A stretch of 64,000 nucleotides of DNA from an uncultured Candidatus Saccharibacteria bacterium (GCA_964643135.1 CAZXPC010000002.1:9049-73048); one strand, 5' to 3'; positions 4,087 through 55,971 are shown, counted from the first letter of the stretch. The notes: generated by a model from the sequence alone, not told the origin. Made by a program: numbers and translations.

Positions 4087-4557
4087 ATGAGAAATCTTCA
4101 AGTTAGATCAATAATATCTCTAGCGATTTTTCACTTTGTTTTCGTATTGATTATTGTCGGTTTGGTTAGCATCGTTTTAGGCCTTTTCTCAATAGCAACT
4201 GCTATTATCGAGGCGTGGCTAAATAATCTACTTGGATTTGATGCATCTTCTTTGGTTGAGGTTTCTTTATCTGTTCTCGTTGGTGTTATGATTTCGACTC
4301 AAGTCATGGGCAAGAGGGTCGTGATAAAAGAACCGCGTAAACTTGCGGTTTTTTCTACGGTCTGCTTGCTGCTGTTACTAATTGGATTACTATCGGCAGA
4401 GTTTTTGACTGAAGGATTTTTCCCCATGCAATTGGGTTTTTGGATATATATTGTAGCAGGAGTAATTTCTTTTTATGTTTTTAGTGAAATATTTTTAAGG
4501 CAGCAGTCGAAAAAGCAGCTTATTAGTCTGTCAGAGACGCCTTCACTAAGGCCTTAA
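4087..4557 (+). CDS. hypothetical membrane protein
   Basis: 156 aa, four hydrophobic segments, AT-rich. Located between pyrG 3' copies 3 and 2. Confidence 0.55.
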   Translation: MRNLQVRSIISLAIFHFVFVLIIVGLVSIVLGLFSIATAIIEAWLNNLLGFDASSLVEVSLSVLVGVMISTQVMGKRVVIKEPRKLAVFSTVCLLLLLIGLLSAEFLTEGFFPMQLGFWIYIVAGVISFYVFSEIFLRQQSKKQLISLSETPSLRP

Positions 4558-4650
4558 AAAGCGGGTGAGGTTTTAGAGGTCTGGATTTGAATTCGGGGAT
4601 GAGCCGTCGGAGCTTCGCTCCTCCTTCAAAACCCTCGGTTTTGAACATCT
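4524..4650 (-). pseudogene. PyrG C-terminal fragment (copy 2 of pyrG 3' end)
   Basis: Minus-strand translation ...RRLIPEFKSRPLKPHPLFKALVKASLTD* resembles the CTP synthase C-terminus. Lies ~190 bp downstream of the intact pyrG stop. Confidence 0.6.
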
Positions 4651-4719
4651 GGCTGTTGACCAGATTCCGACACGGGGAAACGCACGCCTTTCCCCGACCC
4701 CCTTTGACGGCCCACCCCT

Positions 4720-6402
4720 TTATTTTTGTTTGATGCTGGCTCTCACAAAGGCCTTGAACAGTGGATTAGGTCTGAGAGGTCTGGAGGTAAATTCGGGGTG
4801 GGCCTGGGTCCCTACAAAAAACGGGTGGATTTTTCTGGGTAGTTCCATAAATTCCATGAGGCGTTTGTTGGGGGACTCGCCGGAGAAAACTACGCCGCCT
4901 TTTTCTAAGGTCTCTATATATTGCGGGTTAACTTCGTAGCGATGGCGGTGGCGTTCGGTGATATGTGATGCGCCATAAGCCTCGCGCACAATTGTGCCGG
5001 GTTTTAAGTTGGCCGGGTATGAGCCGAGGCGCATTGTTGCCCCATAATCTTTGTTATTCATTTTCTCAATTTGTTCTGGCAGGATGTCGATAATTGGGTT
5101 TTTGGTTTTTGGGTTCACCTCGGTTGTGTGGGAGTCTTTGAGACCCAAAACATTGCGGGCGTATTCAACAGCGGCGAGCTGCATGCCGTAACAAAGGCCG
5201 AGGTAGGGGATCTTATTTTCTCGGCAATAGCGGATGACGTTGATTTTGCCTTCGACTCCGCGCGCGCCGAAGCCGCCGGGCACGATTATGCCATCAAACT
5301 TATCCAAACTCTTAAGATTTTTCATCGTCCTTCCAGCCGCTGACCCGTAGGCGTCAGCATTAACTGACTCGAAGTCGTTGGAGCTTAGCCATTCAATGAC
5401 CGGAATTGCCTTTTCTGAATAGGCGGCGTGTTTCACGGCTTCGATTACAGATATGTATGAGTCAGAGAGCATAAAGCTGCCGGTCGCGAAATATTTGCCC
5501 ACAATGCCGATTTTAACTTGGCGTTGTTTGCGGCCGGCTTCTTCAATTGAATTGATTAACCCCCGCCAGTCGTGGCCATCTTTCTTTTTCGTCCTCAATC
5601 CAAGTGTTTCCATTACGATTTTATCCACCTTTTCTTCTTTGAAGATCTCCGGCAGGTCATAGATGTTTTTGACGTTGGGCGCTGAGATTACATTTTCCTG
5701 GCGGACGTTGCAGTTGAAAGCAATTTTCTCTTTGCGTTTGTCGTCGAGTGAAGTCTTGGCGCGGGCTAAGATCATATCCGGCTGCAGCCCAACGCTGTTT
5801 AACGAACGCACGGCGTATTGAGTCGGCTTGGTTTTTAGTTCTTGGTCCTCGCCTTGAGAGGGGAGGTAGCTTACGAGTGTTAAAAAGACCGAGTGAGGGT
5901 CTTGGAGTTTCAAAATACGCACGGCTTCCAAGAAAAGCATGTTTTGATACTCGCCGACTGTGCCGCCGATTTCGGTAATTACAACGTCAGCCGATGCTTT
6001 CCTCGCGGCATTCTTGAGTCGGGCAATAACTTCCAGCGGAATGTGCGGCACCACTTCGACGCACTTGCCGTCATATTCAAGATTGCGTTCTTTCTGAATG
6101 ACGTGCAGGTAGACTGAGCCGGTTGTCATATAGTTGGCTCTAGTTAGGTCGACATCTAAGAAGCGTTCGTAGTTGCCCATGTCTTGGTCGGTTTCCAGGC
6201 CGTCGTCTAACACAAAAACCTCACCGTGTTCGGTGGGGTTCATGGTCCCGGCATCAACGTTGATGTAGGGGTCGATTTTAATGGCGGTGACGTTGAGGCC
6301 GTGGAATTTGAGGAGGCGGCCGATCGCGGCTGAGGCGGTGCCTTTGCCGACGCCCGACATTACTCCGCCGACGATAAAGATGTAAGAAGTTTTGTGCGGC
6401 AC
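4720..6402 (-). CDS. pyrG: CTP synthase
   Basis: 560 aa; N-terminal synthetase domain (GGVMSGVGKGTASAAIGRLLK), C-terminal glutamine amidotransferase domain (GLCYGMQ, HPEF). Confidence 0.95.
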   Translation of the reverse strand: MPHKTSYIFIVGGVMSGVGKGTASAAIGRLLKFHGLNVTAIKIDPYINVDAGTMNPTEHGEVFVLDDGLETDQDMGNYERFLDVDLTRANYMTTGSVYLHVIQKERNLEYDGKCVEVVPHIPLEVIARLKNAARKASADVVITEIGGTVGEYQNMLFLEAVRILKLQDPHSVFLTLVSYLPSQGEDQELKTKPTQYAVRSLNSVGLQPDMILARAKTSLDDKRKEKIAFNCNVRQENVISAPNVKNIYDLPEIFKEEKVDKIVMETLGLRTKKKDGHDWRGLINSIEEAGRKQRQVKIGIVGKYFATGSFMLSDSYISVIEAVKHAAYSEKAIPVIEWLSSNDFESVNADAYGSAAGRTMKNLKSLDKFDGIIVPGGFGARGVEGKINVIRYCRENKIPYLGLCYGMQLAAVEYARNVLGLKDSHTTEVNPKTKNPIIDILPEQIEKMNNKDYGATMRLGSYPANLKPGTIVREAYGASHITERHRHRYEVNPQYIETLEKGGVVFSGESPNKRLMEFMELPRKIHPFFVGTQAHPEFTSRPLRPNPLFKAFVRASIKQK

Positions 6403-8250: not shown

Positions 8251-8571
8251 TGTGATTAACTTCGATTGGTACAAAGGGATGAGATTTTGGAAGCTCCTCC
8301 TGTTTCTCAAGTCCATCGACTGGTCAGCCAAGTCATCTGTCAGCCAGACGGCGGCATCATCATGGCAGTTTGTGTCTGCGGTTGGGTTACCGAACCCAAA
8401 GTCAAAGGCAAGATGCTTGAGGTCGTTCAGATCATCAATCATCACACGGGTGCGGAACTGCGTTTGAAGTTCAGGCTAGACGGGGCGATTGAGGTGGTGG
8501 TTTGATCAGGTCTGGCCGCGGGTTTTTCCCACGGCTTGTTTTTTTTGGGCCTCGCGACTATCGTTTTAGTG

Positions 8572-28342: not shown

Positions 28343-28414
28343 GCTCTCGTCGTTCAACGGATAGGACGCCTCCCTGCGAAGGAGGAAATTGAGGTTCAAT
28401 TCCTCATGAGAGCA
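28343..28414 (+). tRNA. tRNA-Arg (anticodon GCG)
   Basis: GCTCTCG/TGAGAGC acceptor, anticodon arm CCTCC-CTGCGAA-GGAGG, T-arm TGAGG-TTCAATT-CCTCA. Confidence 0.85.
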
Positions 28415-28452
28415 CAACTCAGGGCGAGGTTCCAGAGACCTGGCTTCTTACC

Positions 28453-29079
28453 TTGTCGAGGCGCTCTGGAAACCTACCTTTCAAGGGCGCAAAACGAGAA
28501 AACAAAGCAGCGAAATTAGTAGAATCGCTAGTTTTGGATTATCATGATTACATGACACCAGAAATAAAAATTTGGCGAACAATAAAAATTGGTACTTTTG
28601 AGAATAAGAACTCGCTCCTCAGTGGACTTCTAAAAAGAAGTGTCTTGATCGAAAATCAGGCGAAAGAATTAATTGATCAAATTGACTTAGCTTCTACTAC
28701 CATTGAATTAGACCTTGTCGTAAAATCTGCTTCTGAGTTAGGTTTAACGAGTGGTCAAGAAGTCGAATACAGATGGGTTTACGATAAAGCAAAGTCAATC
28801 GGTCTTGAAGTGTGTCCTGGAGAAGTTGGACCTCAGCTCTGTTTGCAACAGCTACCACCGGAAGATAACCGATTTGTGAACTGGGTTCTGAGGATAGCCA
28901 TGAATGTTACGCCAGGAGGGAATATTTTCACTTTCATGGATGGAAGGTATTTATACTACAATTCTGCGGGATTAATACTTGGTATAGATAGCAATGATAT
29001 GATGCCCGGATCGGGATCAGGTGCTCTGGAGCCAGTGAAGCCAGAAACCAAATTTGTTTTTGTTAAACCAAGGAAATAA
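28453..29079 (+). CDS. hypothetical protein
   Basis: 208 aa, no motif recognised. Confidence 0.5.
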   Translation: MSRRSGNLPFKGAKRENKAAKLVESLVLDYHDYMTPEIKIWRTIKIGTFENKNSLLSGLLKRSVLIENQAKELIDQIDLASTTIELDLVVKSASELGLTSGQEVEYRWVYDKAKSIGLEVCPGEVGPQLCLQQLPPEDNRFVNWVLRIAMNVTPGGNIFTFMDGRYLYYNSAGLILGIDSNDMMPGSGSGALEPVKPETKFVFVKPRK

Positions 29080-29083
29080 GTAA

Positions 29084-29377
29084 TCGAATCATCCGACTAT
29101 CGGATTCAATGGCGATCAGGCATGGGTTAGGAAACGCTTCACCATCGCTCATGAAATCGGCCATCTTCTGATGGGTCATACCTGTAATGGTATTGATGGG
29201 GAAGATAACGGTGAGACCGAAGCGGATTCTTTTGCTGCGGAACTTTTAATTCCACTCGAAGCTGTGAAGGCTGATTTTGCGCGCCAACCCGATTTAGAAA
29301 AGCTTGCAGAAAAATATATCGTGAGCAAAGACGCTCTCTGCATCCATCTCATGAACTGCAGGGTTCTGAAGTATTGA
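29084..29377 (+). pseudogene. 5'-truncated ImmA/IrrE-family zinc metallopeptidase gene
   Basis: In-frame ...KRFTIAHEIGHLLMGH (HEXXH) with no in-frame start upstream; only the C-terminal ~95 aa remain. Confidence 0.6.
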
Positions 29378-29391
29378 GATAAATTCTTATT

Positions 29392-30456
29392 CTACAGCTT
29401 CATATACCTCGTGCCTCTCCCTCTCCCGATTCTCTTAACCTTACCGATCTCAACCAACCGCTCGAGTGATTTACGAACGGATGGCATGATAATGCCAGTC
29501 GCTTTGACGATTTCGCCAGGGGCCGCTTCTTTAACTTTAGAAAGATATTCCAAAACCTCGTTCTGCTTTGGCGACATAGTGTCTTCATGGGTTTCTTTCT
29601 CCACGAGCGCGATCGCTTTCGTCGCCTGTTCTTTAACGACTGAAAGGAAATAGTTTAGCCACGGAGCAATGGTTTGATCCTTCGTCTTAAAAGTTGCCTG
29701 TGATGAACGAAGGGCGAGATAGTATTGATCCTTGCGCTGTTCGATAATCTGTTCGTGTGAAACATATTGAGCGAACGAGTAGCCAGAGCGAAGTAAAAGC
29801 AAATTTGTTAAGATGCGCGAAAGACGCCCGTTGCCATCTTCGAACGGATGGATTTTAAGAAACTCGATAATGAAGTTGGCGATTATGAGCAACGGATGGA
29901 AACGTTCTTTGGCGAAGGCCTCTTGTGTCCACTCAACGAGCTCAGTCATTTCTTTCGGCGTGAGATAGGCTGGAGTTGTTTCGAACATTATTTTCGCTAC
30001 CTTGCCGTCCGGGCCAAGAACCCCAACCATATTTTCTTTGTGTTTGTATTCGCCGCGATGTAGATCGTCTTTGCTTGAATATTTCAAAAGTTCCTTATGG
30101 AGCGAAGTGATGACGCTCTCACGCAATGGCAGATCTTTATAGCTGTCGAAAACATTTTTAAGAGTTTCGAGGTATCCTTGCACTTCCTGCGAATCGCGAT
30201 CAGCAAATTTCTGAATCGAGAGTCCCTGCATAATCTTTTTAACTTCCTCATCAGAGAGCTTAGAGCCTTCGATACGAGTTGAAGCACCGGCTGAGGTAAC
30301 GAGCACTGATTTTCGTAAGCTAGTTATCGCTTGCGGTGTCATTCGCAGGCCCACACGAAAGACGCCCCTAATTTCATCTATCGCTGCCAAAAAAGCTACG
30401 ATATGAGGGTCGGGATTCTTAATTCTATAATCAAATTTTCGGCTGTTGTTTTCCAT
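29392..30456 (-). CDS. Fic-family protein (AMPylase/Doc-like) with C-terminal winged-helix
   Basis: HPFEDGNGRLSR Fic motif. Confidence 0.85.
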   Translation of the reverse strand: MENNSRKFDYRIKNPDPHIVAFLAAIDEIRGVFRVGLRMTPQAITSLRKSVLVTSAGASTRIEGSKLSDEEVKKIMQGLSIQKFADRDSQEVQGYLETLKNVFDSYKDLPLRESVITSLHKELLKYSSKDDLHRGEYKHKENMVGVLGPDGKVAKIMFETTPAYLTPKEMTELVEWTQEAFAKERFHPLLIIANFIIEFLKIHPFEDGNGRLSRILTNLLLLRSGYSFAQYVSHEQIIEQRKDQYYLALRSSQATFKTKDQTIAPWLNYFLSVVKEQATKAIALVEKETHEDTMSPKQNEVLEYLSKVKEAAPGEIVKATGIIMPSVRKSLERLVEIGKVKRIGRGRGTRYMKL

Positions 30457-30957
30457 ATTTGCTGATATTTATTACGTTATCGGATTTTATCAGTTTTTAT
30501 CAGATAAGGCAAATCCCAAAAGTTCGGGCTGATAAAGTTGTGTAAATTGGATTTTGGTTAGTAAATATGAGGGTTTTCTAGAAAATAGCCATTTCCACAT
30601 GGCCCAAAATTTTGGGTTTGTTTGGGTTTTTGGATGGACATGAGACGCCCTAAAAAACCTAGAAAAGTGTCTCATTTGTATCATTTTGATCCAAACCGAA
30701 CACGAAAGACAGGTCTTAATGTGTGTTCGGTTTGTTCTGTTCGGAGGGTGACCGAGGTGCTTCGTCCGCTGGAAAGCCCTCTCAAAATCTCCTATACTTC
30801 TTGAATAGCCCAGCGACCGAGGTCCTTCAATCAGAAGGTGAAATCGACCCTCAAAAACGTTGTCTGGGCCTCAACTATAAAGGTTGGAGACCGTGGAAGG
30901 GCACAAATTGAGGCGATCCATAAAATGGATCGAGTCAATTTGTGCTATGAGGAATTA

Positions 30958-31074
30958 ACGGGAAAGGGGTCGGGAAAACGGAAGTTTTCCCGTGGCGGAA
31001 AAGCGCCGATAGGCGTGAGCTAAAACCGCTGGGTTTTAGGGAGGAGCGGAGCGACGACGTTCAATTCCTCATGA
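30958..31074 (+). repeat. tRNA-linked conserved motif plus 16-bp copy of tRNA-Arg 3' end (att-like)
   Basis: ACGGGAAAGGGGTCGGGAAAACGGAAGTTTTCCCGTGGCGGA ... AACCGCTGGGTT ... GTTCAATTCCTCATGA; paralogous to 48738-48847 and rc of 55490-55613. Confidence 0.6.
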
Positions 31075-31130
31075 TCCCTGCAGGGGATTTACTTGTACGT
31101 AGTTCCTACCCAGAGTATTATTTAGAGCAC

Positions 31131-31517
31131 ATGAAATTTTATATTCCTAAAAATAATCGACAGATGACTGCTCTAGCGAGGCAGATCGGCTATATTCTTC
31201 AAAAATCTACCGATAGGAGCGAGACCGCCTTTATCCGCCCATTAATGGGCGGGGAATTTCCGAGGTTTCATTTATATGTTGCCGAGGAAGGAGAAAATTT
31301 TATTCTTAACTTGCACCTGGACCAAAAACAGTCTAAATATGCCGGTTCGGCTGCTCACGGCGGGGAATATGACGGCGAGCTGGTGGAACAGGAAGCGGCA
31401 AGGATAAATAATTCACTGATTCGCGCGGAATCGGCCAGAACGGTTTCGTCGCCAGAGAAGACCAAAAAAGAAAACAGCAGCCTGGCTGCTATTTTCAAGA
31501 AGATGTTTGGTAACTAA
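31131..31517 (+). CDS. hypothetical protein
   Basis: Track ORF starts at 31071 inside the att-like copy; M at 31131 chosen. No motif recognised. Confidence 0.45.
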   Translation: MKFYIPKNNRQMTALARQIGYILQKSTDRSETAFIRPLMGGEFPRFHLYVAEEGENFILNLHLDQKQSKYAGSAAHGGEYDGELVEQEAARINNSLIRAESARTVSSPEKTKKENSSLAAIFKKMFGN

Positions 31518-33231: not shown

Positions 33232-34068
33232 CTATTTTTTGATGAGCGTGCTGCCGATCAGAATATTGTTAGCCCAATAGTTTCCCGTGTTGCCGAACGG
33301 TAATATGTCGTAGGTATGGCCATGGTAATAGGTTATTCTATCGGCGCTCAAGATTCTGGAGCCATCCAAAAGATCGCCTTTCACGAGGTTGCCTATAAAT
33401 CGGCCGTCGCTCGTGGGGTGGCCTTCTGAAGCCAAGAGTTCCCGGCCGTCAGCTAATTTCACATCGACAACTTGGTGGGTTAGGGGAACAGGCGTTTTAG
33501 CAATGGCAATGATTGGTGCGGAAATTCTCTTGCCGAAAACATCGGTTGTCCAGACAAGGTCGCCCGGCTTAAGGCTCTCGATAGGATTTTCTCCAGATGG
33601 AGTTGCGATCAAAGTTCCTTGGGCCAGGCAAATCGGGCAAGGGCGGTTGAAGTCTTTAGTCTCTCTAAACGTGGCGCTGCTGCCGTTGATGCTCCGTAGG
33701 GTCAGCGTGATTGTACATCCGTTGGAAACGCTTTCGCCGATATGAAGGGTAATGGGCGAGCCTTCGCTAACCGCCAGAGGGTATTCGCGGTAAGCCAGGC
33801 CAGTTACGTAGGTCGGATAAATTTTCTGAACCAAGAGCGGCCCCTCGCGTTCGCCCTCTCTTAACGTGATCTCGCCTCCGCTCGAAGGAGGCGTTGGCGG
33901 GATGGGCGCGGGAGTCGGGTTGGGTGAAGGAGTTGGGATAGGCGCGGGGGAAGGAGGTACCAGGGAAGAATGGTTCATAATTAAGAAAATACTGAGAACT
34001 GCCCCCAAAGCCAAAATGCCGATAGCGAAAACAATCTCTGCCGAACCTCTGCGATTTTTTAAGTTCAT
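33232..34068 (-). CDS. secreted protein with Pro-rich linker and Hint (Hedgehog/intein-like, BIL-type) domain
   Basis: CLAQGTLIATPSG...LKPGDLVWT...HQVVDVKLADGRELLASEGHP...DLLDG, consistent with Hint blocks A/B. Confidence 0.6.
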   Translation of the reverse strand: MNLKNRRGSAEIVFAIGILALGAVLSIFLIMNHSSLVPPSPAPIPTPSPNPTPAPIPPTPPSSGGEITLREGEREGPLLVQKIYPTYVTGLAYREYPLAVSEGSPITLHIGESVSNGCTITLTLRSINGSSATFRETKDFNRPCPICLAQGTLIATPSGENPIESLKPGDLVWTTDVFGKRISAPIIAIAKTPVPLTHQVVDVKLADGRELLASEGHPTSDGRFIGNLVKGDLLDGSRILSADRITYYHGHTYDILPFGNTGNYWANNILIGSTLIKK

Positions 34069-38864: not shown

Positions 38865-39551
38865 TTAAGCAGGAATGTACTGGTAGTCGGCGACCTTAGG
38901 CAGGCGGATGGTGCGCAAGACTTTGCCGAAAATTTTGTAAGTTGAGTTGCCGTCGATAATGATAGGTCTAAAAGATTTATCCTTAGAAACTGGGTTTAAG
39001 ACAATGATGTCATCAGCCCGCACATATTTTTTGATGACCGCGTTGTCGTTGATCAGGGCCACTACAATGTCGCCGATCTCGATACTCTGATCAGGGATGC
39101 GCTCCACCAAAACTAAGTCGCCGTCATAGATATCCGCGCCCTGCATACTGTTGCCGACCGCTTTGATGACGAAAAGATTTTCTTTTTTGTGGCCTTTCAC
39201 CAAGTTGGTCGAGATGTCGACAAACTCGTCAAAGATTCGCTCGGCTAAGACCGACAAGTTGCCGCAACCGGCTGAAGCAAAAACCGGAATGCTGATTGTA
39301 AAAGATTCTTTTTTATTGGGGTTGATCAGCTGAATGCTCCGGCTCTTGTAGCGTTCGCGAGTGATGAGACCTTTCTTAGAGAGAACGTTGAGGTACTGAA
39401 TGACCGAGCGCGAGGAGGGCTTTTTCATCGCCTCGGCGATTTCGGCGATGGTAGGGGACTCGCCATGATTCAAAATATATTTCGAAATAAAATCAAAAAC
39501 CTTTTGCTGCTGCTTCGTCAGATCTATTTTGATGTGATTAATTTTCTTCAT
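38865..39551 (-). CDS. lexA: LexA repressor (S24 peptidase)
   Basis: N-terminal wHTH, AG cleavage site (ASAGCG), GNSM catalytic Ser, downstream Lys. Confidence 0.85.
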   Translation of the reverse strand: MKKINHIKIDLTKQQQKVFDFISKYILNHGESPTIAEIAEAMKKPSSRSVIQYLNVLSKKGLITRERYKSRSIQLINPNKKESFTISIPVFASAGCGNLSVLAERIFDEFVDISTNLVKGHKKENLFVIKAVGNSMQGADIYDGDLVLVERIPDQSIEIGDIVVALINDNAVIKKYVRADDIIVLNPVSKDKSFRPIIIDGNSTYKIFGKVLRTIRLPKVADYQYIPA

Positions 39552-39623: not shown

Positions 39624-39677
39624 TAAGATATGTTATTATTTTGTAGGTTTCTAAAGTATTGGGATAATGATATATTT

Positions 39678-40592
39678 ATGACGATGTTGATTAATCAATT
39701 AAAAACCGTCAAGAGCGGTCTTTTGGTTCCTACTGGGGATCGTAAGAACCCTAGGCCTTTTTTGAAATGGGTTGGTGGCAAATCACAGATAATCGAAAAA
39801 ATAAAAGAGAATCTTCCTCGAGAATATAATCGTTATTTCGAGCCGTTCCTGGGTGGAGGTGCCGTTTTCTTCAAAGCAATTCCCTGGGATAAGCAGGCTG
39901 TCTTGAGCGATATAAATGGCAACCTTGTCGGAGCGTTTAGTGATATAAAAGCAAATTTCGACGAAGTCATTTTTGAGATAAACAACTTGATAAATGGGTA
40001 TAAGAACCTTAGTCCTAAAGGCATGGAGCGATTCTACTACGACAGAAGGGATGAATATAACTCGATAAGAACTCCGAGCGCCTCTATAAAGAGGACTGCC
40101 TTGTTAATTTTTCTTAATAAGACTTGCTATAACGGCGTTTATAGAGAAAACTCTAAGGGAGAATTTAATGTGCCGATCGGGTATAAGACTTTAAGAAATA
40201 TCTTTAACAACGAGAATCTTGAATTGGTTGCTAAGAAACTTAAGTCAGCCAAGATTGTAAACATGAGCTACAAAGATATTCTTGATCAAGCCCAAAGAGG
40301 AGATCTTATTTATCTTGACCCCCCCTATAACCCGCTAACCAAGACTGCCAATTTCACAAAATATAACAGTGCCGATTTTGGGCCCAAGGATCAGATAGAG
40401 CTCAGAGATCTCTTCATGGATTTAGATAATCGAGGATGTTATCTCATCATGAGCAATTCTGATACTGAGTTGACGCGCAGTCTTTACTCTAATTATGCTA
40501 GCAAAATAGTACGGGTTGAAGCTGCGCGTACAGTTAATTGTCACGGATCTTCTCGTAAACCAGTCGGAGAAGTATTGATAAAAAACTTTTAA
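39678..40592 (+). CDS. dam: Dam-family (D12 class) DNA N6-adenine methyltransferase
   Basis: KWVGGKSQ, FEPFLGGGAVFF (motif I), DPPY (motif IV). GATAAT -10 element 7 nt upstream of the ATG at 39678. Confidence 0.85.
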   Translation: MTMLINQLKTVKSGLLVPTGDRKNPRPFLKWVGGKSQIIEKIKENLPREYNRYFEPFLGGGAVFFKAIPWDKQAVLSDINGNLVGAFSDIKANFDEVIFEINNLINGYKNLSPKGMERFYYDRRDEYNSIRTPSASIKRTALLIFLNKTCYNGVYRENSKGEFNVPIGYKTLRNIFNNENLELVAKKLKSAKIVNMSYKDILDQAQRGDLIYLDPPYNPLTKTANFTKYNSADFGPKDQIELRDLFMDLDNRGCYLIMSNSDTELTRSLYSNYASKIVRVEAARTVNCHGSSRKPVGEVLIKNF

Positions 40593-42562
40593 TGGCTAAG
40601 AAGTCTAAAAAGACCACAAGAGAAATAGGTAATGAGTTGCATGATAGAATGCGGATTCTATTTAGTAAAATGGATTTTAGAATTCTAGACAGTGATTATA
40701 ATGCAGAAGGTCCTGATATAGTTATACAAGACGACAGTCTGAAAGTAAAAATACTTATTCAGTGTAAAAAACACGAAGGAGAGGAGAAAACATATTCTGC
40801 AATTTCACGTTTAACCGACGAATATGCTCATAAAGTTTCTAGGATGAAGGCTTCGGCGGCCATCCTAACTCTTTCTGGGTATAAGCCAAGCCGTAGAGTA
40901 AATATTAGTGAAGAAATAAGGACCAAGAAGGTCTCTATATGGACAGACTCCTTGATTGATTATTATGAGGACTTAACGAAGAAGATCGGATTATATGCGA
41001 AATATCAAATGCTTTCTGACCTTGGACTTAAGGTGAGATTCGACAAGGATAAAGAATTTGATGCGATTAAAGTCTCGCAAAATGGCATCGAATTTTATGC
41101 ATTCAAAGCTAGCCCAGAATGGCTGCTAAGATCAGCTGCGGTTGTGCGAAGGATTAATTTAGGAGGAAGGCTAACAGGTTATCAAAGGTTGCTATCTCGA
41201 GATCGCGTAAAAAATAAGATTCCTAAGTTTCTTGATGAAGGCGAGTGGGTATTTCCTAACACGATAATCTTTGCATCAGAGTTGGGATTGGATATTAGGT
41301 ATAAGGATGGGAAGATGATTTTTCCAAGTAAACTAGGCTCAGTTTGGGTTATCGATGGACAACACCGACTCTATTCCTTTGCTAATATTCAGAATTCAGT
41401 TGTTAGGGAGAGCAGCGAACTTCTATGCACTGTTATAGACAGTTCGGCTTTGGGTCAAGACGCAGAAGCTAAGCAGGCATCAATTTTTGTCACTCTAAAC
41501 CAACAAGCCAAAAAAGTAGATAAATCGTTAATATTCGAACTATATAGACTCTTGGGTTTAACTGATCCTGGTGTCGAGATAGCTATTAGACTTTCTGAGT
41601 CGAAATTGTTTAAAGGATTAGTCTCTGGCTATTCAGATAAGGGAGGGTTGATAACGATAACGACGCTCGTCGCTTCGATAAAAAGTTTGATATCTGCTAG
41701 CAATCCGTTGTTAAGGGTTAGGCTAAATGATAGAAACGTTGCTGATATTTTGTTTAACAAATTGTATATTTTTTTCCAGAAAGTTAACAAGGTATTTAGG
41801 AAAGAATGGGGATCTGAAAAGTATATTTTATCAGAAAATAGAGGCGTCGGAGCTTTAATTGAACTATATAATAAGGCGCTCATCTTTTGCAAAAATAACA
41901 ATAAAGATTTGGATAATTATTCTATCAAGCTCCTTGAGTCCCTGAAAAAATCAGGGTTTAATCTCAGTTCGGAAAATCTTAAAGGTCAATACCTCGGTGA
42001 AGGAGGCCCTAGGAAGTTGGCTATGGAGTGGGCTTCTTTAATTACGAAAACAATACCTGGTTTCGAGCCTGGAGTTGAAGAAAGAACAATTGATAAGTTC
42101 TCTTCAAAACACGGGGATCTTCAGGGTGCTGAAAATAAGTTAAAAGACTGGCTCCCAAATCTTAAAGGAGAGATTAGAGGAAAATTGATGCATATTGATC
42201 CAACAACAATTGAATACTTAAGATGCATCCCAAAAGAAACTAATATGAGAATATTCTTTGGAGATGCTGATGAAGAAGCCTTAGTTAGGGAACGTCTTAG
42301 AAAAATGAGGGCCGATGGCTATAAAATAATCCTTACTAAGGCACAGAAGCCTACTAAGGGAAGTCTTTTTCATGAGAGATGGATTGCGTCAGAAGCTTTA
42401 AGGATTCAGCTAAATTGTGATCTAAAGAAACAAGCAATTAAAAACGCAACATATTTCATGTATTTATCAGAATGGAATAAGGCTCCAGAAATTGTTGAGT
42501 TTGATCAGGATTGGCAACAGGCGCAGAGAGAATTTCAATTTGAATATAATTGGGGAGCTTAG
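40592..42562 (+). CDS. fusion protein: N-terminal Mrr-like PD-(D/E)xK nuclease domain + DGQHR (DndB/ParB-like) domain + uncharacterised C-terminal region
   Basis: ATG overlaps the dam stop (TAATG). GPDIVIQDD...KILIQCKK (nuclease motifs II/III), VWVIDGQHRLYSF and FVTLNQQ (DGQHR signature). Confidence 0.65.
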   Translation: MAKKSKKTTREIGNELHDRMRILFSKMDFRILDSDYNAEGPDIVIQDDSLKVKILIQCKKHEGEEKTYSAISRLTDEYAHKVSRMKASAAILTLSGYKPSRRVNISEEIRTKKVSIWTDSLIDYYEDLTKKIGLYAKYQMLSDLGLKVRFDKDKEFDAIKVSQNGIEFYAFKASPEWLLRSAAVVRRINLGGRLTGYQRLLSRDRVKNKIPKFLDEGEWVFPNTIIFASELGLDIRYKDGKMIFPSKLGSVWVIDGQHRLYSFANIQNSVVRESSELLCTVIDSSALGQDAEAKQASIFVTLNQQAKKVDKSLIFELYRLLGLTDPGVEIAIRLSESKLFKGLVSGYSDKGGLITITTLVASIKSLISASNPLLRVRLNDRNVADILFNKLYIFFQKVNKVFRKEWGSEKYILSENRGVGALIELYNKALIFCKNNNKDLDNYSIKLLESLKKSGFNLSSENLKGQYLGEGGPRKLAMEWASLITKTIPGFEPGVEERTIDKFSSKHGDLQGAENKLKDWLPNLKGEIRGKLMHIDPTTIEYLRCIPKETNMRIFFGDADEEALVRERLRKMRADGYKIILTKAQKPTKGSLFHERWIASEALRIQLNCDLKKQAIKNATYFMYLSEWNKAPEIVEFDQDWQQAQREFQFEYNWGA

Positions 42563-52691: not shown

Positions 52692-55490
52692 ATGGAACGG
52701 GGTCCAAGACTAAAAACATCCGAAGAGCTAGCTGAACAGGCAAAATCGGTTTCAGATAGCTTGGGTCAGGAAATTTCTCAACCCTCAAAAAAGAACGAGG
52801 TTTTTAATTTATCTCTCGAAGAAATAAAAGCTAGGTTTCCAAGACGCTACGATATTTATCTGAAAAACCTCAAAGCCAAGAAGGCTGGCAAAGAAATTGA
52901 TCCGGACGAGAAAGAAAAGATGGTTAAATGGCTTATTGTTTTGAATAACCTTGATAAATACATTGAAGCTCATAAATCGGGTGGGGACGTTACTCTACGT
53001 GAGCACCAAATCGGTCCTTTCGAAGCGCTAAGAGATTTTCTTGAAGAAGGAGGGGATGCGGGGCACATCAAACTTCCAACTGGCTCGGGGAAAACAGTTG
53101 TTGGGGCCGAATTCATTGAGGCGACAGGTTTAAAGACTTTAGTGGTTGTCCCAACAAGGACGTTGGTTGGTCAGACCATGGGGCAACTCCAAAAGCATAT
53201 TAAAGGGAGGAAAGTGGGCGCTTATTTTTCAGAACAAAAAGGCTTGACAATGGACGTCGACGTAACGACCTATCAGTCCTTGAAAAACATCGATACCAAG
53301 AAATACGACTTGGTGATTTTTGATGAGGCCCATAAGGCAGAAGGGGAAGATACTGCGAAACTTGTGTCTGAGACTAAATGTATGGTTAAACTTGGCCTGA
53401 CTGCTACGCCCACCAAGAGGACGAGTGAGTTAATGGGTGAAGAAATATATTCGATGCAACTTAGGGATATGATAGAAATTGGAGCCCTTGCTCCATGTCA
53501 GGTTAATCTGGCTAAAGTTAAAAATATTGATACATCGAACGTAACAGTTAATAGGAACGGAGAATATAGCGAAAGCGAGTTGGAAGCCATTTTAAATGTG
53601 CGGCCGGCCAACGAAGCTGCGGTTAAACTATACAAAGAAGGATTCGCCGGCGAAAAGATGATCGCTTTTACTGCTGGGAAATTACATGCTAAAGATTTGT
53701 CAGAACTTTTTAATGCCAGAGGCATAAGAGCGGGATTTATAATTGGCGAGACATCTACTGCTGATAGAGAAGATCTTTTCGCGCGATTTAAGGGTAAAAG
53801 AGTGCTTCGGAATAAAGAAGGCGCAGTGATTGGAGAAGAAATGATTCCGACAGAAGATCAGATTGACGTTTTAATTGGAGCTAGGGTTTTAATCGAAGGT
53901 TTTGATGAGCCTAGGGCCTCAGTCTGCTTCAATATAGTCCCGACTGCCTCTAAAGTTGTTGCTGAGCAAAGGGGCGGCAGAGTTCTAAGAAGGGATGACG
54001 ACAACCCCGGCAAAGAAGCTACTGTGGTTGATTTTGTTTATGAGGGTAAGAATAATAGACAGATATTATTTAGTAGGGTTCTCGGCGGTGCCCGGGTTGG
54101 ATCAGTTGGGAAGTCAGTTTTTGGAGAATCTATTGGTGACAAAGATTATTCGAGAGATAGAGATCAATTCAGAACTAGAGGATTCATTGAAATCGAGGGG
54201 ATAGAATTTATTGTGAATGAGGAAGAGGTTATGAAGGTAGAAAGAAAGATGGATGATGAAGCCTATGATTTTGCCCCTGAAGACTGGAAAACAAACGGCG
54301 GATTGGCGGAAGATATAGGAACCAGTTTCTCAGTTGTTAAAAGGATTGCCGAGAGTGTTCGAGGTGAAAAGCCGGAATGGTTTAGAATTTATAAATTCAA
54401 GGGAGGAAGGGTCGAAGAATATTACAGCCCTGAATTAGTTAAGCTAATCATGGAAGAAGTCCAAGCCAGGGAGGAGGCTCCGGTGGGCTGGAAGACAAAT
54501 GGTTTCGTTGCTAACGTGCTAGATTATGCTCATTCAACGATAAGCAAAATAGCCGATAAATATCGAGTTTCAAATCCAGAATGGTTCAGAAAATACAAGA
54601 TTAAAGCCGGCAGAGTAGAGGAGCATTACGCGCCAGATTTAGTTACCGAAATCAGGCAGGAGCTTGCCTCACGCGAGTTTGCCCCAGAAGGCTGGGTTAC
54701 CAACAAATCGTTATCAAATGAACTTGATGTTGACAAAGGGACTGTCAGGAACAGCGCGAATAGATATCGCGCTGATCATCCCGATATGTTTAGGGTATTT
54801 AAAAATAAACTTGGGCAAATTACAGAGCACTATTCGCCCGAATTAGCCTTGATGGTTAAAAGAGACATCTCAACTCGCGAGAACCGTCCCGAAGGTTGGA
54901 TGACTAACGGAGAGCTCTTTAATGAGCTCGATGTCGATGAGACTACGGTAAAAAATCGAGCCGATCGATATCGAGCCTCACATCCGGATTGGTTTAGGGT
55001 TTATAAGAATAAGACAAATAAGCCCACCGAACACTATTCTCCTGAATTGGCAGCAATCATCAAAAGAGATATTGTGTCATATGAATATGCTCCCGAAGGA
55101 TGGCACATAACCAATGAATTAGCCGAAGGACTTGGCGTTTCAGCGCGGTCGATTCAGAATGAAGCCGAACGACACAGATTCGCTCACCCTGATTGGTTTA
55201 AAAAGTACAAAGTAAGAATGGGACGTGTTTTAGAGCACTATTCTCCAGAGCTTATCTCAATTATTAAGGCTAAGTTTATGGGTCAAGAATTTGCTCCGGC
55301 AGGATGGAGGCCCAATGCACCGCTCGCGTTAGAGCTGGGATCTACCCCATATACTGTAAAGAAGATAGCTGAGAGGTATAGGGCCGCAAACCCAGCATGG
55401 TTTAGACAATATAAGCCTAAAACAGGACCGATAACAGAGTACTACCATCCAGATTTGGTTGAGAAAATTAAAGAAGCTTTAGGAAAATAG
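52692..55490 (+). CDS. SF2 (DEAD/DEAH, ResIII-like) helicase with six C-terminal ~68-aa tandem repeats
   Basis: LPTGSGKT (motif I), DLVIFDEAHK (motif II), helicase C domain. From residue ~520, six repeats of AP.GW.TN..L...L.......K..A.RYR...P.WFR.YK.K.G...EHYSPEL...I. Confidence 0.8.
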   Translation: MERGPRLKTSEELAEQAKSVSDSLGQEISQPSKKNEVFNLSLEEIKARFPRRYDIYLKNLKAKKAGKEIDPDEKEKMVKWLIVLNNLDKYIEAHKSGGDVTLREHQIGPFEALRDFLEEGGDAGHIKLPTGSGKTVVGAEFIEATGLKTLVVVPTRTLVGQTMGQLQKHIKGRKVGAYFSEQKGLTMDVDVTTYQSLKNIDTKKYDLVIFDEAHKAEGEDTAKLVSETKCMVKLGLTATPTKRTSELMGEEIYSMQLRDMIEIGALAPCQVNLAKVKNIDTSNVTVNRNGEYSESELEAILNVRPANEAAVKLYKEGFAGEKMIAFTAGKLHAKDLSELFNARGIRAGFIIGETSTADREDLFARFKGKRVLRNKEGAVIGEEMIPTEDQIDVLIGARVLIEGFDEPRASVCFNIVPTASKVVAEQRGGRVLRRDDDNPGKEATVVDFVYEGKNNRQILFSRVLGGARVGSVGKSVFGESIGDKDYSRDRDQFRTRGFIEIEGIEFIVNEEEVMKVERKMDDEAYDFAPEDWKTNGGLAEDIGTSFSVVKRIAESVRGEKPEWFRIYKFKGGRVEEYYSPELVKLIMEEVQAREEAPVGWKTNGFVANVLDYAHSTISKIADKYRVSNPEWFRKYKIKAGRVEEHYAPDLVTEIRQELASREFAPEGWVTNKSLSNELDVDKGTVRNSANRYRADHPDMFRVFKNKLGQITEHYSPELALMVKRDISTRENRPEGWMTNGELFNELDVDETTVKNRADRYRASHPDWFRVYKNKTNKPTEHYSPELAAIIKRDIVSYEYAPEGWHITNELAEGLGVSARSIQNEAERHRFAHPDWFKKYKVRMGRVLEHYSPELISIIKAKFMGQEFAPAGWRPNAPLALELGSTPYTVKKIAERYRAANPAWFRQYKPKTGPITEYYHPDLVEKIKEALGK

Positions 55491-55613
55491 CTCCGCAGGT
55501 AGGGCACTTCGCTATCTCACTGCTCGGCTAAAGCCTGCGCTTTGAAACCCAGCGGTTTCAATACTTCCGCCACGGGAAAACTCCCGTTTTCCCGACCCCT
55601 TTCCCGTTCGATC
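55490..55613 (-). repeat. tRNA-linked conserved motif plus 15-bp copy of tRNA-Asn 3' end (att-like, minus orientation)
   Basis: rc reads GGGATCGAACGGGAAAGGGGTCGGGAAAACGGGAGTTTTCCCGTGGCGGA ... AAACCGCTGGGTTT ... GATAGCGAAGTG + CCCTACCTGCGGAGC. The core copy overlaps the helicase stop codon. Confidence 0.6.
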
Positions 55614-55670
55614 CCACTGGCGGTAAATACTAAAAAATATCTGACAGATTCAGATATTTTCTAGTATATG

Positions 55671-55971
55671 CTCCGCAGGTAGGGATCGAACCTACGACCA
55701 TCGCCTTACACTTGTCCTATCGTTGCCGTTAGGGGTGGACTATATCATATCCCGTTTCTTACCGGGACCGAGGCGCTTCCGCGCAACTGTTTTGCGAGTA
55801 CTCCCACTAGGGGATAGTCTCTACACCTTCCGAACGAATTGTCCGGCTTGGCTCGGGATTGCCCATTTAAATTAAAAAGGGTTTCCCCGAATTCACCTCG
55901 TTTTTCAAACTAGATTGCTCTAGTAAGCTGCCTTCTGACAGGGCGCCGCTCTACCGCTGAGCTACTGCGGA
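55671..55971 (-). tRNA. tRNA-Asn (anticodon GTT) interrupted by a group I intron
   Basis: Exons 55938-55971 and 55671-55708 splice to TCCGCAGTAGCTCAGCGGTAGAGCGGCGCCCTGT|TAAGGCGATGGTCGTAGGTTCGATCCCTACCTGCGGAG, closely matching a bacterial tRNA-Asn (anticodon loop CTGTTAA). A hairpin (55634-55660) follows the gene. Confidence 0.8.
55709..55937 (-). ncRNA. group I intron (IC3-like) in the tRNA-Asn anticodon loop, no ORF
   Basis: ~229 nt between anticodon positions 35/36. Contains GAAGGTGTAGAGACTA and CGAGCCAAGC core elements as in the Azoarcus tRNA-Ile intron (recalled from memory). U at -1 can pair with intron GCAG (P1); intron ends in G. Confidence 0.7.

Follow-up and report, generated by a model that had tools for sequence, protein, structure and literature searches.

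A structured gene-end module of Patescibacteria and a probable, decayed accessory insert beside a tRNA-Arg gene of a Candidatus Saccharibacteria bacterium

Integrative elements and genomic islands that target tRNA genes (with a tyrosine integrase, and with attL and attR taken from the tRNA 3' end), and their non-autonomous derivatives (cis-mobilizable elements, CIMEs), place accessory genes at the 3' end of a tRNA gene, with a tRNA segment directly repeated, the tRNA left intact, and the cargo in decay. The tRNA-Arg(GCG) locus described here shares all of these properties. It lies in a 64,000-nt stretch of an uncultured Candidatus Saccharibacteria bacterium (GCA_964643135.1, CAZXPC010000002.1:9049-73048), referred to as the window and used for all coordinates, and carries an open reading frame (ORF) without homologues (an ORFan), a fragment of an ImmA/IrrE peptidase gene, a Fic gene, and, downstream of these, a conserved motif closed by a 16-nt copy of part of the tRNA. 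Unlike the known tRNA-targeting elements, however, there is no integrase at the locus or beside 124 listed copies of the motif-bearing unit, which we call the module. The repeat is part of this ~130- to 250-bp unit, which is normally cargo-free and has an inverted copy of its target as well, and one core serves dozens of targets, including protein genes, with none in viral contigs. The anatomy of the locus is composite, and the two parts are probably unrelated things, a module that was there already and a 2.48-kb accessory insert that came later.

Two further groups of elements resemble the module. Like homing elements (group I introns, inteins, and free-standing homing endonuclease genes), it is found at highly conserved motifs in genes that are universal, namely AH(V/I)D of translational GTPases, HPEF of PyrG, RERIRQIE of RpoD, UVR of UvrB, and the T-loop of tRNAs, and it leaves the gene able to function; a similar case is that of mitochondrial insertions by which the 3' end of a gene is duplicated. 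In contrast to homing elements, the module has no splicing and no endonuclease gene, the gene end is duplicated, and the same core is found at many targets. The guide-RNA elements (IS200/IS605 elements with TnpB omega-RNA, palindrome-associated transposable elements [PATE], and IS110 elements with bridge RNA) share with the module a structured scaffold that abuts a variable, target-identical segment, as well as protein-less copies. They differ in that the module has no Rfam match, no TnpB, IscB, or IS110-type gene is present in the window or near the listed copies, and the module scaffold is flanked by mutually pairing sense and antisense target segments, with a duplication of 15 to 90 nt.

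The features of the tRNA-Arg locus are as follows; R1 is a covariance model made from 47 module copies and searched against the window.

28343-28415 (ARAGORN) or 28343-28414 (Rfam RF00005, 58 bits), plus strand: tRNA-Arg(GCG), of which the part from the T-loop to the 3' end (28394-28417) forms the sense segment (S, or X) of the module.
28394-28409, plus strand: first copy of the 16-nt repeat GTTCAATTCCTCATGA, within tRNA-Arg.
28418-30900: inserted segment (cargo), 2,483 bp, with GCACAA flanks at 28412-28417 and 30901-30906.
28453-29079, plus strand: ORFan, 208 aa, TTG start; gene callers take a later start, giving 175 aa.
29084-29377, plus strand: ImmA/IrrE (Peptidase_M78) pseudogene fragment, PF06114 E 3.4e-16, profile positions 28-122 of 123.
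29392-30456, minus strand: intact Fic gene, 354 aa, class II SoFic-like, PF02661 E 6.6e-17, motif HPFEDGNGRLSR.
30457-30512, minus strand: Fic 5' region, 56 nt, conserved as DNA with Fic loci of other genomes, with promoter-like TTGCCT-17-TAAAAT (30512-30484).
30901-30945, plus strand: hairpin GCACAAATTGAGGCGATCCAT-AAA-ATGGATCGAGTCAATTTGTGC, 21-nt arms, 90%; the 5' arm is the displaced tRNA-Arg trailer and the 3' arm enters the antisense arm.
30939-30959, plus strand: antisense arm TTTGTGCTATGAGGAATTAAC, the reverse complement of the tRNA-Arg T-loop-to-trailer sequence GTTCAATTCCTCATGAGAGCACAAA with two small deletions.
30960-31058, plus strand: conserved core, R1 match of 71.3 bits, E 4.7e-20, ending in GGAGGAGCGGAGCGACGAC.
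30971-30979/30984-30992, 31003-31016, and 31020-31027/31032-31039, plus strand: core helix P2, an extra hairpin, and core helix P3.
31059-31074, plus strand: second copy of GTTCAATTCCTCATGA (S', or X'), a sense copy of the tRNA-Arg T-loop and T-stem that pairs with the antisense arm and closes the module.
31164-31517, plus strand: downstream host gene with a 117-aa product, matching an annotated protein at 100% identity.

All of the features listed in a previous sequence-only reading of this DNA (tRNA-Arg, the 16-nt repeat, the 208-aa ORFan, the ImmA fragment, Fic, and the conserved motif) are thus present, with small corrections. The order within a module is the gene end S, a short loop or hairpin, the antisense of S, a structured core of ~90 to 110 nt, and the sense copy S'. 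In the copies at tRNA-Cys and at an intron-bearing tRNA, the antisense stretch covers the T-loop, T-stem, and acceptor strand. Within the core, GGGAAAGGGGTCGGGAAAAC-loop-GTTTTCCCG precedes TGGCGGAAG; next come another hairpin, of which GAAACC-GCTG-GGTTTC is an example, and hairpins that vary, and the core ends in GAGCGAAGCGACG. The antisense arm at tRNA-Arg gives a local alignment with a score of 26 (GTT-AATTCCTCAT---AGCACAA). The repeat GTTCAATTCCTCATGA has only two exact copies in the window, where 0.06 matches are expected by chance and no shuffle of 100 has two copies, and when extended into the flank the copies are identical at 18 of 19 positions. It runs from G53 through the T-loop and the 3' strand of the T-stem and takes in the initial 3 nt of the acceptor strand. 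The repeat had been described as a copy of the tRNA-Arg 3' end; it is an exact 16-nt tRNA copy, but the extreme 3' end is excluded from it. The second copy is followed by TCCC instead of GAGCA, so the acceptor stem cannot be completed and this is not a displaced native tRNA 3' end.

The accessory DNA interrupts the module. The insert lies within the 5' arm of the long hairpin that belongs to the module, so that the tRNA-Arg to module gap is 2,544 nt, and the hairpin at 30901-30945 opens with GCACAAATTGAGG, i.e., the last bases of tRNA-Arg (GCACAA, 28412-28417). When the insert is removed in silico (28394-28417 joined to 30907-31080), the sequence folds so that the tRNA end pairs with the antisense arm in a continuous hairpin of ~37 bp, after which come the core and then the closing helix, and this is the architecture of the module copies at tRNA-Cys and at an intron-bearing tRNA elsewhere in the window. 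Because the rebuilt site regains the usual continuous hairpin, we infer that 28418-30900 is an insertion at the tRNA 3' boundary beside a pre-existing module. An island boundary at 31074 was proposed previously, but the 28417-30907 join that rebuilds the hairpin puts the end of the insert near 30900, ~170 bp earlier. It was also proposed that the motif and the 16-nt repeat are the attachment (att) site closing the island, which is not supported, as the same module is present without cargo after tRNA-Cys and the intron-bearing tRNA, and is also found at 6 to 145 nt after 68 tRNAs elsewhere and at the ends of protein genes.

The window has four module copies, three strong (at tRNA-Arg, tRNA-Cys, and the intron-bearing tRNA) and one diverged (at the pyrG 3' end):

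30958-30999 (plus strand), 48755-48784 (plus strand), 55566-55607 (minus strand), and, diverged, 4635-4716 (minus strand): occurrences of the conserved motif.
48725-48847, plus strand: second module copy, cargo-free, 42 nt past tRNA-Cys (48634-48706); R1 87.9 bits.
55490-55624, minus strand: third module copy, cargo-free, after a group I intron-bearing tRNA; R1 96.2 bits.
4523-4804, minus strand: fourth, diverged module copy, at the 3' end of pyrG (CTP synthase); R1 24.5 bits, E 8e-6.

The two cargo-free copies sit 42 to 64 nt past their tRNAs, and their sense copies are GTTCGATTCCCACCGGCGCCTC (22 nt, 48826-48847) at tRNA-Cys and CCCTACCTGCGGAGC (15 nt, 55490-55504) at the intron-bearing tRNA. 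The latter gene lies at ~55671-55971 on the minus strand with its group I intron at 55716-55951 (Rfam RF00028, 61 bits); ARAGORN makes no call there, and from the loop CUGUCA and the discriminator G it is probably a tRNA-Asp(GUC). Cores often end in GCGAAGC, as at 48815-48825, a sequence known to form an unusually stable DNA mini-hairpin. At pyrG, whose identity is confirmed by the Pfam CTP_synth_N and GATase domains, S is the last 27 codons of the gene from the conserved HPEF (4804-4720), the antisense arm is at 4719-4706, and the core is at ~4705-4605; the R1 match (4635-4716) comes right after the pyrG stop codon. The sense copy (4604-4523) is a second, displaced, ORF-like PyrG C terminus, HPEFKSRPLKPHPLFKALVKASLTD with its stop codon. 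Most differences between the two termini are synonymous or conservative, as though each terminus had its origin in a different lineage, and against the C termini of 51 PyrG relatives they are equally family-like (mean BLOSUM scores of 71 and 73 for S and S'), which argues that the displaced copy is a genuine pyrG terminus rather than the product of random decay.

Covariation and wobble bias give indications that the core is a structured RNA. In P3, each of the four pairs has 8 to 16 double-sided compensatory changes; such cells number 54, compared with 14.3 in column shuffles (reached in 0 of 500) and 3 to 12 when the pairing partners are slid, and the covariation score of 0.196 compares with 0.077 in the shuffles (again reached in 0 of 500) and at most 0.083 with slid partners. 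In P2, the 5' strand is fixed by the search seed, and among departures in the 3' strand there are 16 G.T and 6 A.C or C.A, for which 3 and 6 sites, respectively, are possible; this excess of G.T would be expected if the tRNA-sense strand is the one made as RNA. The core is not a coding sequence, as the indels in the variable hairpins are not multiples of three. A T-box-like pairing of UGGN in the core with the tRNA discriminator was also considered, and in our reading it fails for the Arg and Cys copies. Rfam 15 has no family that matches the core at gathering thresholds over the window, and in an E-value scan of 48600-48900 tmRNA_permuted (E 0.39), overlapping the T-arm, is the only match to reach past the tRNA.

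The module is widespread. Scanning GTDB species-representative contigs with a 20-mer from the core finds it in at least 120 contigs among the matches listed, with several copies per genome, and ~100 of 120 have Patescibacteria labels (Paceibacteria, Parcubacteria, 'Saccharibacteria', Moranii-, Jorgensen-, Kaiser-, Berkel-, Colwell-, and Wolfebacteria, and others); the few with other labels are probably mis-binned. The 20-mer has no match in 2.9 million IMG/VR viral contigs. No searchable paper contains the 14-mers of the core, and a keyword search of the literature gave no description of the module, which is apparently an element widespread in bacteria of the candidate phyla radiation (CPR) and new to description. 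For 124 copies among the matches listed, we surveyed the flanking 4 kb on each side and clustered the neighboring genes (individual loci are given by L numbers). A same-strand tRNA gene lies within 150 nt upstream in 68 of the 124, representing 32 isoacceptors, with gaps of 6 to 145 nt (median, 57.5). These 68 are among ~71 tRNA-linked modules, and three have longer gaps; at L106, 268 nt separate the tRNA and the module. The core is followed by an exact copy (≥10 nt) of the 3' end of its own tRNA in 51 of the listed copies, and the antisense arm resembles its own tRNA more than it does other tRNAs. In six loci (L037, L042, L061, L081, L084, and L102), the core is instead a 5' leader placed directly before a complete tRNA (..GACG, then the tRNA), without an antisense arm. 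By eye, sigma-70-like hexamers lie directly upstream of the core before the tRNA operon in two of these (TTGACT-17-TATACT in L042 and TTGACT-17-TAGGAT in L081), suggesting that there the core is transcribed as a tRNA leader.

Protein genes are occupied in a similar manner. The module duplicates the 5' ends of genes for EF-G and TypA/LepA (both up to the AH(I/V)D codons) and of those for L11 and a DinB-like protein, and the 3' ends of rpoD (88 nt from RERIRQIE, one mismatch), uvrB (UVR motif), and pyrG (HPEF), and the duplication always breaks at a conserved motif. Some duplications look fresh, such as 66 nt at 100% identity in L031 and 88 nt with one mismatch in L095. In L107, the LepA-like ORF that precedes the module has an insertion of ~150 aa after the G1 region that by eye looks like a small nuclease-like domain. 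Orphan modules (L089, L056, L020, and L066) have tRNA-3'-like arms, with no upstream tRNA detected in the available sequence. There are also far more diverged variants of the core past neighboring tRNAs, for example GTCGGAGCCACTTTTGTC-AGCA-GACAAAAGGGCGAGACGGTGG (L037 at ~+200 to +330, L118 at ~+240, and L062 at ~+130), and the module family is therefore broader than the exact 20-mer.

The insert itself is an ordinary decayed accessory insert, of a type common beside tRNA genes, with one live SoFic-like gene. The DNA at the tRNA-Arg 3' end is indeed accessory and foreign-looking, as previously noted, and contains a decayed ImmA gene and a Fic gene drawn from the mobile pool; the lack of an integrase is likewise upheld, with no integrase or transposase domain in the ORFs of 28416-31074 (small ORFs included, at E≤1) or in ~35 large ORFs of the window. 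There are no integrase remnants in the ORF-free part of the insert or in alternative frames, no terminal direct or inverted repeats of the cargo beyond those in shuffled controls, and no DNA matches to the insert in phage and plasmid collections except for the Fic core. The ORF-free stretch (30457-30900) has hairpins and no credible ORF, as had been reported, but is ~440 bp long rather than ~500 bp. At 30880-30908 there is a sequence that may be a third, degenerate copy of the tRNA end, with identity at 17 of 29 positions, a level reached 17 times in 128,000 sequence windows; this is suggestive, was noticed post hoc, and does not serve as evidence here.

Pfam, NCBIfam, PHROG, PADLOC, and the PDB contain nothing that matches the ORFan, and among 5.8 billion proteins it matches only itself; a single-sequence AlphaFold2 model is uninformative (predicted local distance difference test score of 37). 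Its frame stays open from the junction at 28417, so it may be truncated at the 5' end or a spurious gene. The ImmA fragment has an intact HEIGH zinc site and Peptidase_M78 from position 28 to the end, as in ImmA/IrrE proteases of the CapP and RmrA type. In contrast to those proteases, it lacks the N-terminal part, a start codon, and an XRE partner gene, none being present at the island. It aligns to the middle of its relatives (phrog_2439 at 181-280 of 367, CapP at 59-153 of 242, and RmrA at ~181-266 of 363), with 60 to 180 N-terminal residues gone. No ATG, GTG, or TTG occurs in its frame from 29084 until 29171, which is itself past HEIGH, and the in-frame sequence upstream is full of stops; it is thus a pseudogene that is untranslatable through the active site, as the sequence-only reading had it. 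The missing N terminus is not hidden in the ORFan region, where the ImmA frame is stop-ridden.

The Fic product conforms to HxFx(D/E)GNGRxxR (HPFEDGNGRLSR) and has STRIEG at approximately residues 59 to 64 of the same polypeptide, ahead of the Fic core, where it aligns with SNRLEG of PDB 8uqu. This fits (S/T)xxxE(G/N), the inhibitory motif of class II Fic proteins, reportedly as defined by Engel and coworkers in 2012. The gene product matches 8uqu (E 1.7e-37 over residues 21-353) and PADLOC SoFic (E 1.5e-45, positions 52-349 of 361), and a weak winged-helix match at its C terminus adds to the likeness to SoFic of Shewanella oneidensis and to the single-gene SoFic defense candidates, which have the Fic motif, the same-chain N-terminal inhibitory motif, and a winged-helix-like C-terminal tail. 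Unlike SoFic, however, it scores only 53.2 bits against the NCBIfam SoFic equivalog NF046030 (cut-off, 550), and is thus a distant relative of SoFic, not an orthologue. It has 6,889 homologues, more than 100 of them at 75 to 88% protein identity, and close homologues are in unrelated neighborhoods, one of them within a type I restriction-modification/SMODS-SLATT defense island. DNA similarity to other Patescibacteria Fic loci (72 to 76% identity) is confined to 29389-30512, which is the promoter and the ORF. A putative antitoxin region had been placed upstream at 30457-30700, but there is no credible ORF there or small antitoxin gene adjoining Fic, the inhibitory motif is internal, and the conserved 56 nt upstream are promoter-like. 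With its own promoter-like site, similarity that ends with the promoter and ORF, and unrelated contexts, Fic appears to be a self-contained accessory-pool gene that requires no antitoxin. Its product, a predicted AMP-transferase with a built-in inhibitory helix, most likely works by itself as an effector in stress or against phages, and is less likely to be the toxin of a pair whose antitoxin is encoded separately.

The history that we think probable is that tRNA-Arg(GCG) first bore the CPR-widespread module (S, a short loop, antisense S, a core of ~100 nt, and S'), and that 2.48 kb of accessory DNA later entered at the tRNA 3' boundary, pushing the module 2.5 kb away; what is left would be a decayed fragment with the ORFan, the dead ImmA/IrrE gene, and the one live Fic gene. 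The DNA may have arrived by either of two routes, to which we give about equal weight: illegitimate recombination, or an integrase that acts at tRNA 3' ends and was lost later along with an XRE partner. The 6-nt GCACAA repeat is the sole trace at the junctions. A single decayed integrative element spanning 28415-31074 would be the conventional account: a tyrosine integrase would have acted at the tRNA-Arg 3' end, the 16-nt repeats would be the attL and attR cores, the motif would be an integrase-binding arm of attR, and the short copies elsewhere would be decayed or cargo-less derivatives. A direct repeat of a tRNA segment does flank accessory genes, Fic and ImmA are typical mobile-element cargo, and L113 (DQGN01000015.1, 956-7513) also has kilobase-scale DNA between a tRNA and a matching module. 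This account is nonetheless improbable, as 68 of the ~71 listed tRNA-linked modules lie within 145 nt of their tRNA, none of the 124 copies has an integrase nearby, the motif is absent from the viral contigs, and a core at 32 isoacceptors and several protein genes is unlike a sequence-specific integrase arm; moreover, TCCC past the second repeat is at odds with a native 3' end, and the tRNA trailer resumes at 30901, not at 31075. The 6,482-nt gap in L113 between tRNA-Gln(UUG) and the module (sense arm identical to the tRNA 3' end at 20 of 23 positions) contains an MBL-fold protein, an orotidine monophosphate decarboxylase, a PALP enzyme, and unknowns, with no integrase and with a small GIY-YIG protein just past the module. 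These metabolic-type genes give some color to a different proposal, that the 2.5 kb at tRNA-Arg is native DNA placed there by rearrangement, for example by recombination of near-identical dispersed cores, of which four similar ones lie within 64 kb, and the GC content of the insert is not distinctive. We regard this as having little chance of being correct: the break falls outside the core, at the point where the tRNA end would meet the hairpin of its own trailer, so that core-core recombination does not yield the Arg junction, and the contents are an ORFan, a truncated ImmA, and a Fic gene with close homologues in unrelated contexts. Equally hard to credit is capture or carriage of cargo by the module itself, with the loop between S and antisense S as a landing pad or the Arg copy as a loaded element. 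The Arg cargo is exactly in that interval, as are the L113 DNA and the 268-nt stretch in L106, but only 3 of the ~71 listed copies are loaded, their contents are mutually unrelated, and the ORFan, the sole candidate for an element-encoded protein, has no homologue.

As to the nature of the module, we put the chances at about even that it is a non-autonomous, selfish insertion element that is moved in trans and whose core is a structured RNA of the same sense as the tRNA. Conserved-motif targets, duplication of termini, fresh-looking duplications (and the two orthologous-like termini of pyrG), and the use of one core at many targets all argue for this reading. The closing helix would be built from the target sequence, and the module would land at highly conserved motifs near gene ends and duplicate the gene end so that the gene survives; with one core serving many targets, recognition would be by the target-derived arms rather than by a sequence-specific protein. 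A more specific form of this proposal, which we advance tentatively, is that the core belongs to an undescribed, CPR-specific, protein-less element that is retargeted by copying the target into its closing helix (as antisense and sense arms), inserts at conserved motifs near gene ends with a duplication of 15 to 90 nt, and is mobilized by a trans-acting, possibly RNA-guided, enzyme; the Arg island would be DNA trapped in a unit of this kind. The main competing view sees the module as immobile, a family of host small RNAs whose tRNA- or gene-end-like closing helices are processing or stability signals and which ride on tRNA transcription, with the island an adjacent insertion. Extreme conservation of the core over phylum-level lineages, the covariation with a strand-specific wobble bias, the six tRNA 5' leaders (two with promoter-like sequences upstream), and the absence of viral copies would all suit a host RNA. 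However, a processing signal does not explain the duplication of protein-gene ends in either orientation to the core, the fresh duplications (L031 and L095) and the orthologue-like, diverged pyrG duplication suggest repeated insertion and transfer, and the presence of a copy differs between tRNAs of one genome, and we consider the host-RNA view rather unlikely.

Several observations weigh against the reading of a later insert beside a mobile module. The insertion is deduced from the architecture and not observed as a polymorphism, the 6-nt GCACAA flanking repeat could be due to chance, the GC content of the insert (0.38 to 0.46) is not clearly unlike that of its surroundings, and the ordinary-looking metabolic genes in L113 show that separation of tRNA and module can also arise by rearrangement. 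No relative with an uninterrupted tRNA-Arg site was found by protein look-ups, in JGI (Joint Genome Institute) metagenomes, or by a junction scan. Exact-protein look-up of the two genes flanking the insert gave the same genome only (L121 and L122) for one and nothing for the other, and the metagenomes had no relatives of the upstream flanking gene. The uninterrupted site is predicted to have tRNA-Arg(GCG) directly joined to GAGAGCACAAATTGAGGCGATCCAT; the junction 21-mer CATGAGAGCACAAATTGAGGC has a single match (L130), which is inside unrelated high-GC coding DNA with no tRNA and is attributed to chance. For the module, a clear match of the antisense arm to the last 14 nt of its own tRNA, meaning a score over the control's 95th percentile, is seen in only 44% of copies, and the covariation set consists of related sequences in which P2 is fixed by the search seed. 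A 'GGAGG' core subtype lies in a larger conserved context without gene-end duplication, and no neighbor gene or partner enzyme is consistently linked to the module in the neighborhood survey. The 'GGAGG' unit reads TTTTGTCTCCCTT..GGAGGGAGTACCCGT ... GACGGGGGAGGGTGGATA and has up to 7 copies per genome (L005, L010, L016, L024, L053, L064, L069, L080, and others). As candidate partner proteins, small GIY-YIG proteins at 5 loci (at varying distances) and helix-turn-helix proteins at 4 loci were considered and rejected as inconsistent.

What had been taken for an att site is a highly conserved, multi-copy structured module, present across Patescibacteria, by which tRNA genes and the termini of essential genes are marked with copies of their own sequence in both orientations, and it merits study in its own right. 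If it is indeed a mobile, target-programmed RNA element, it would show selfish elements settling in essential genes by a new route that involves no splicing, and could lead to a new nucleic-acid-guided enzyme. It would also be an annotation hazard, giving rise to broken short-read assemblies, false ORF starts, false att sites, and pseudo-termini such as that of pyrG. Logan short-read contigs of the same genome (L121 at 8271-8305 and L122 at 5273-5307; SRR8931233/4) stop inside the conserved core, with the R1 matches cut at the 3' end, and the module repeat thus breaks assemblies. A 148-aa ORF that starts inside the tRNA repeat (31071) is an extension artifact of the downstream host gene, since the annotated product is 117 aa and its homologues (~97 to 100 aa) cover only the C-terminal two-thirds.

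The window otherwise looks like an ordinary Patescibacteria chromosome, with genes for ClpB, RNase Y, HtrA, FemAB, IF-2, LexA, and PyrG. Beside LexA, a Dam-type methyltransferase adjoins a DndB-like protein (39630-42562 and 38865-39551), and the pair may be a small defense or modification locus. Just before a tRNA-Ser gene, a 278-aa protein (33232-34068, minus strand) has a proline-rich N terminus, after which a Hint domain begins but is limited to PF13403 positions 1-32.

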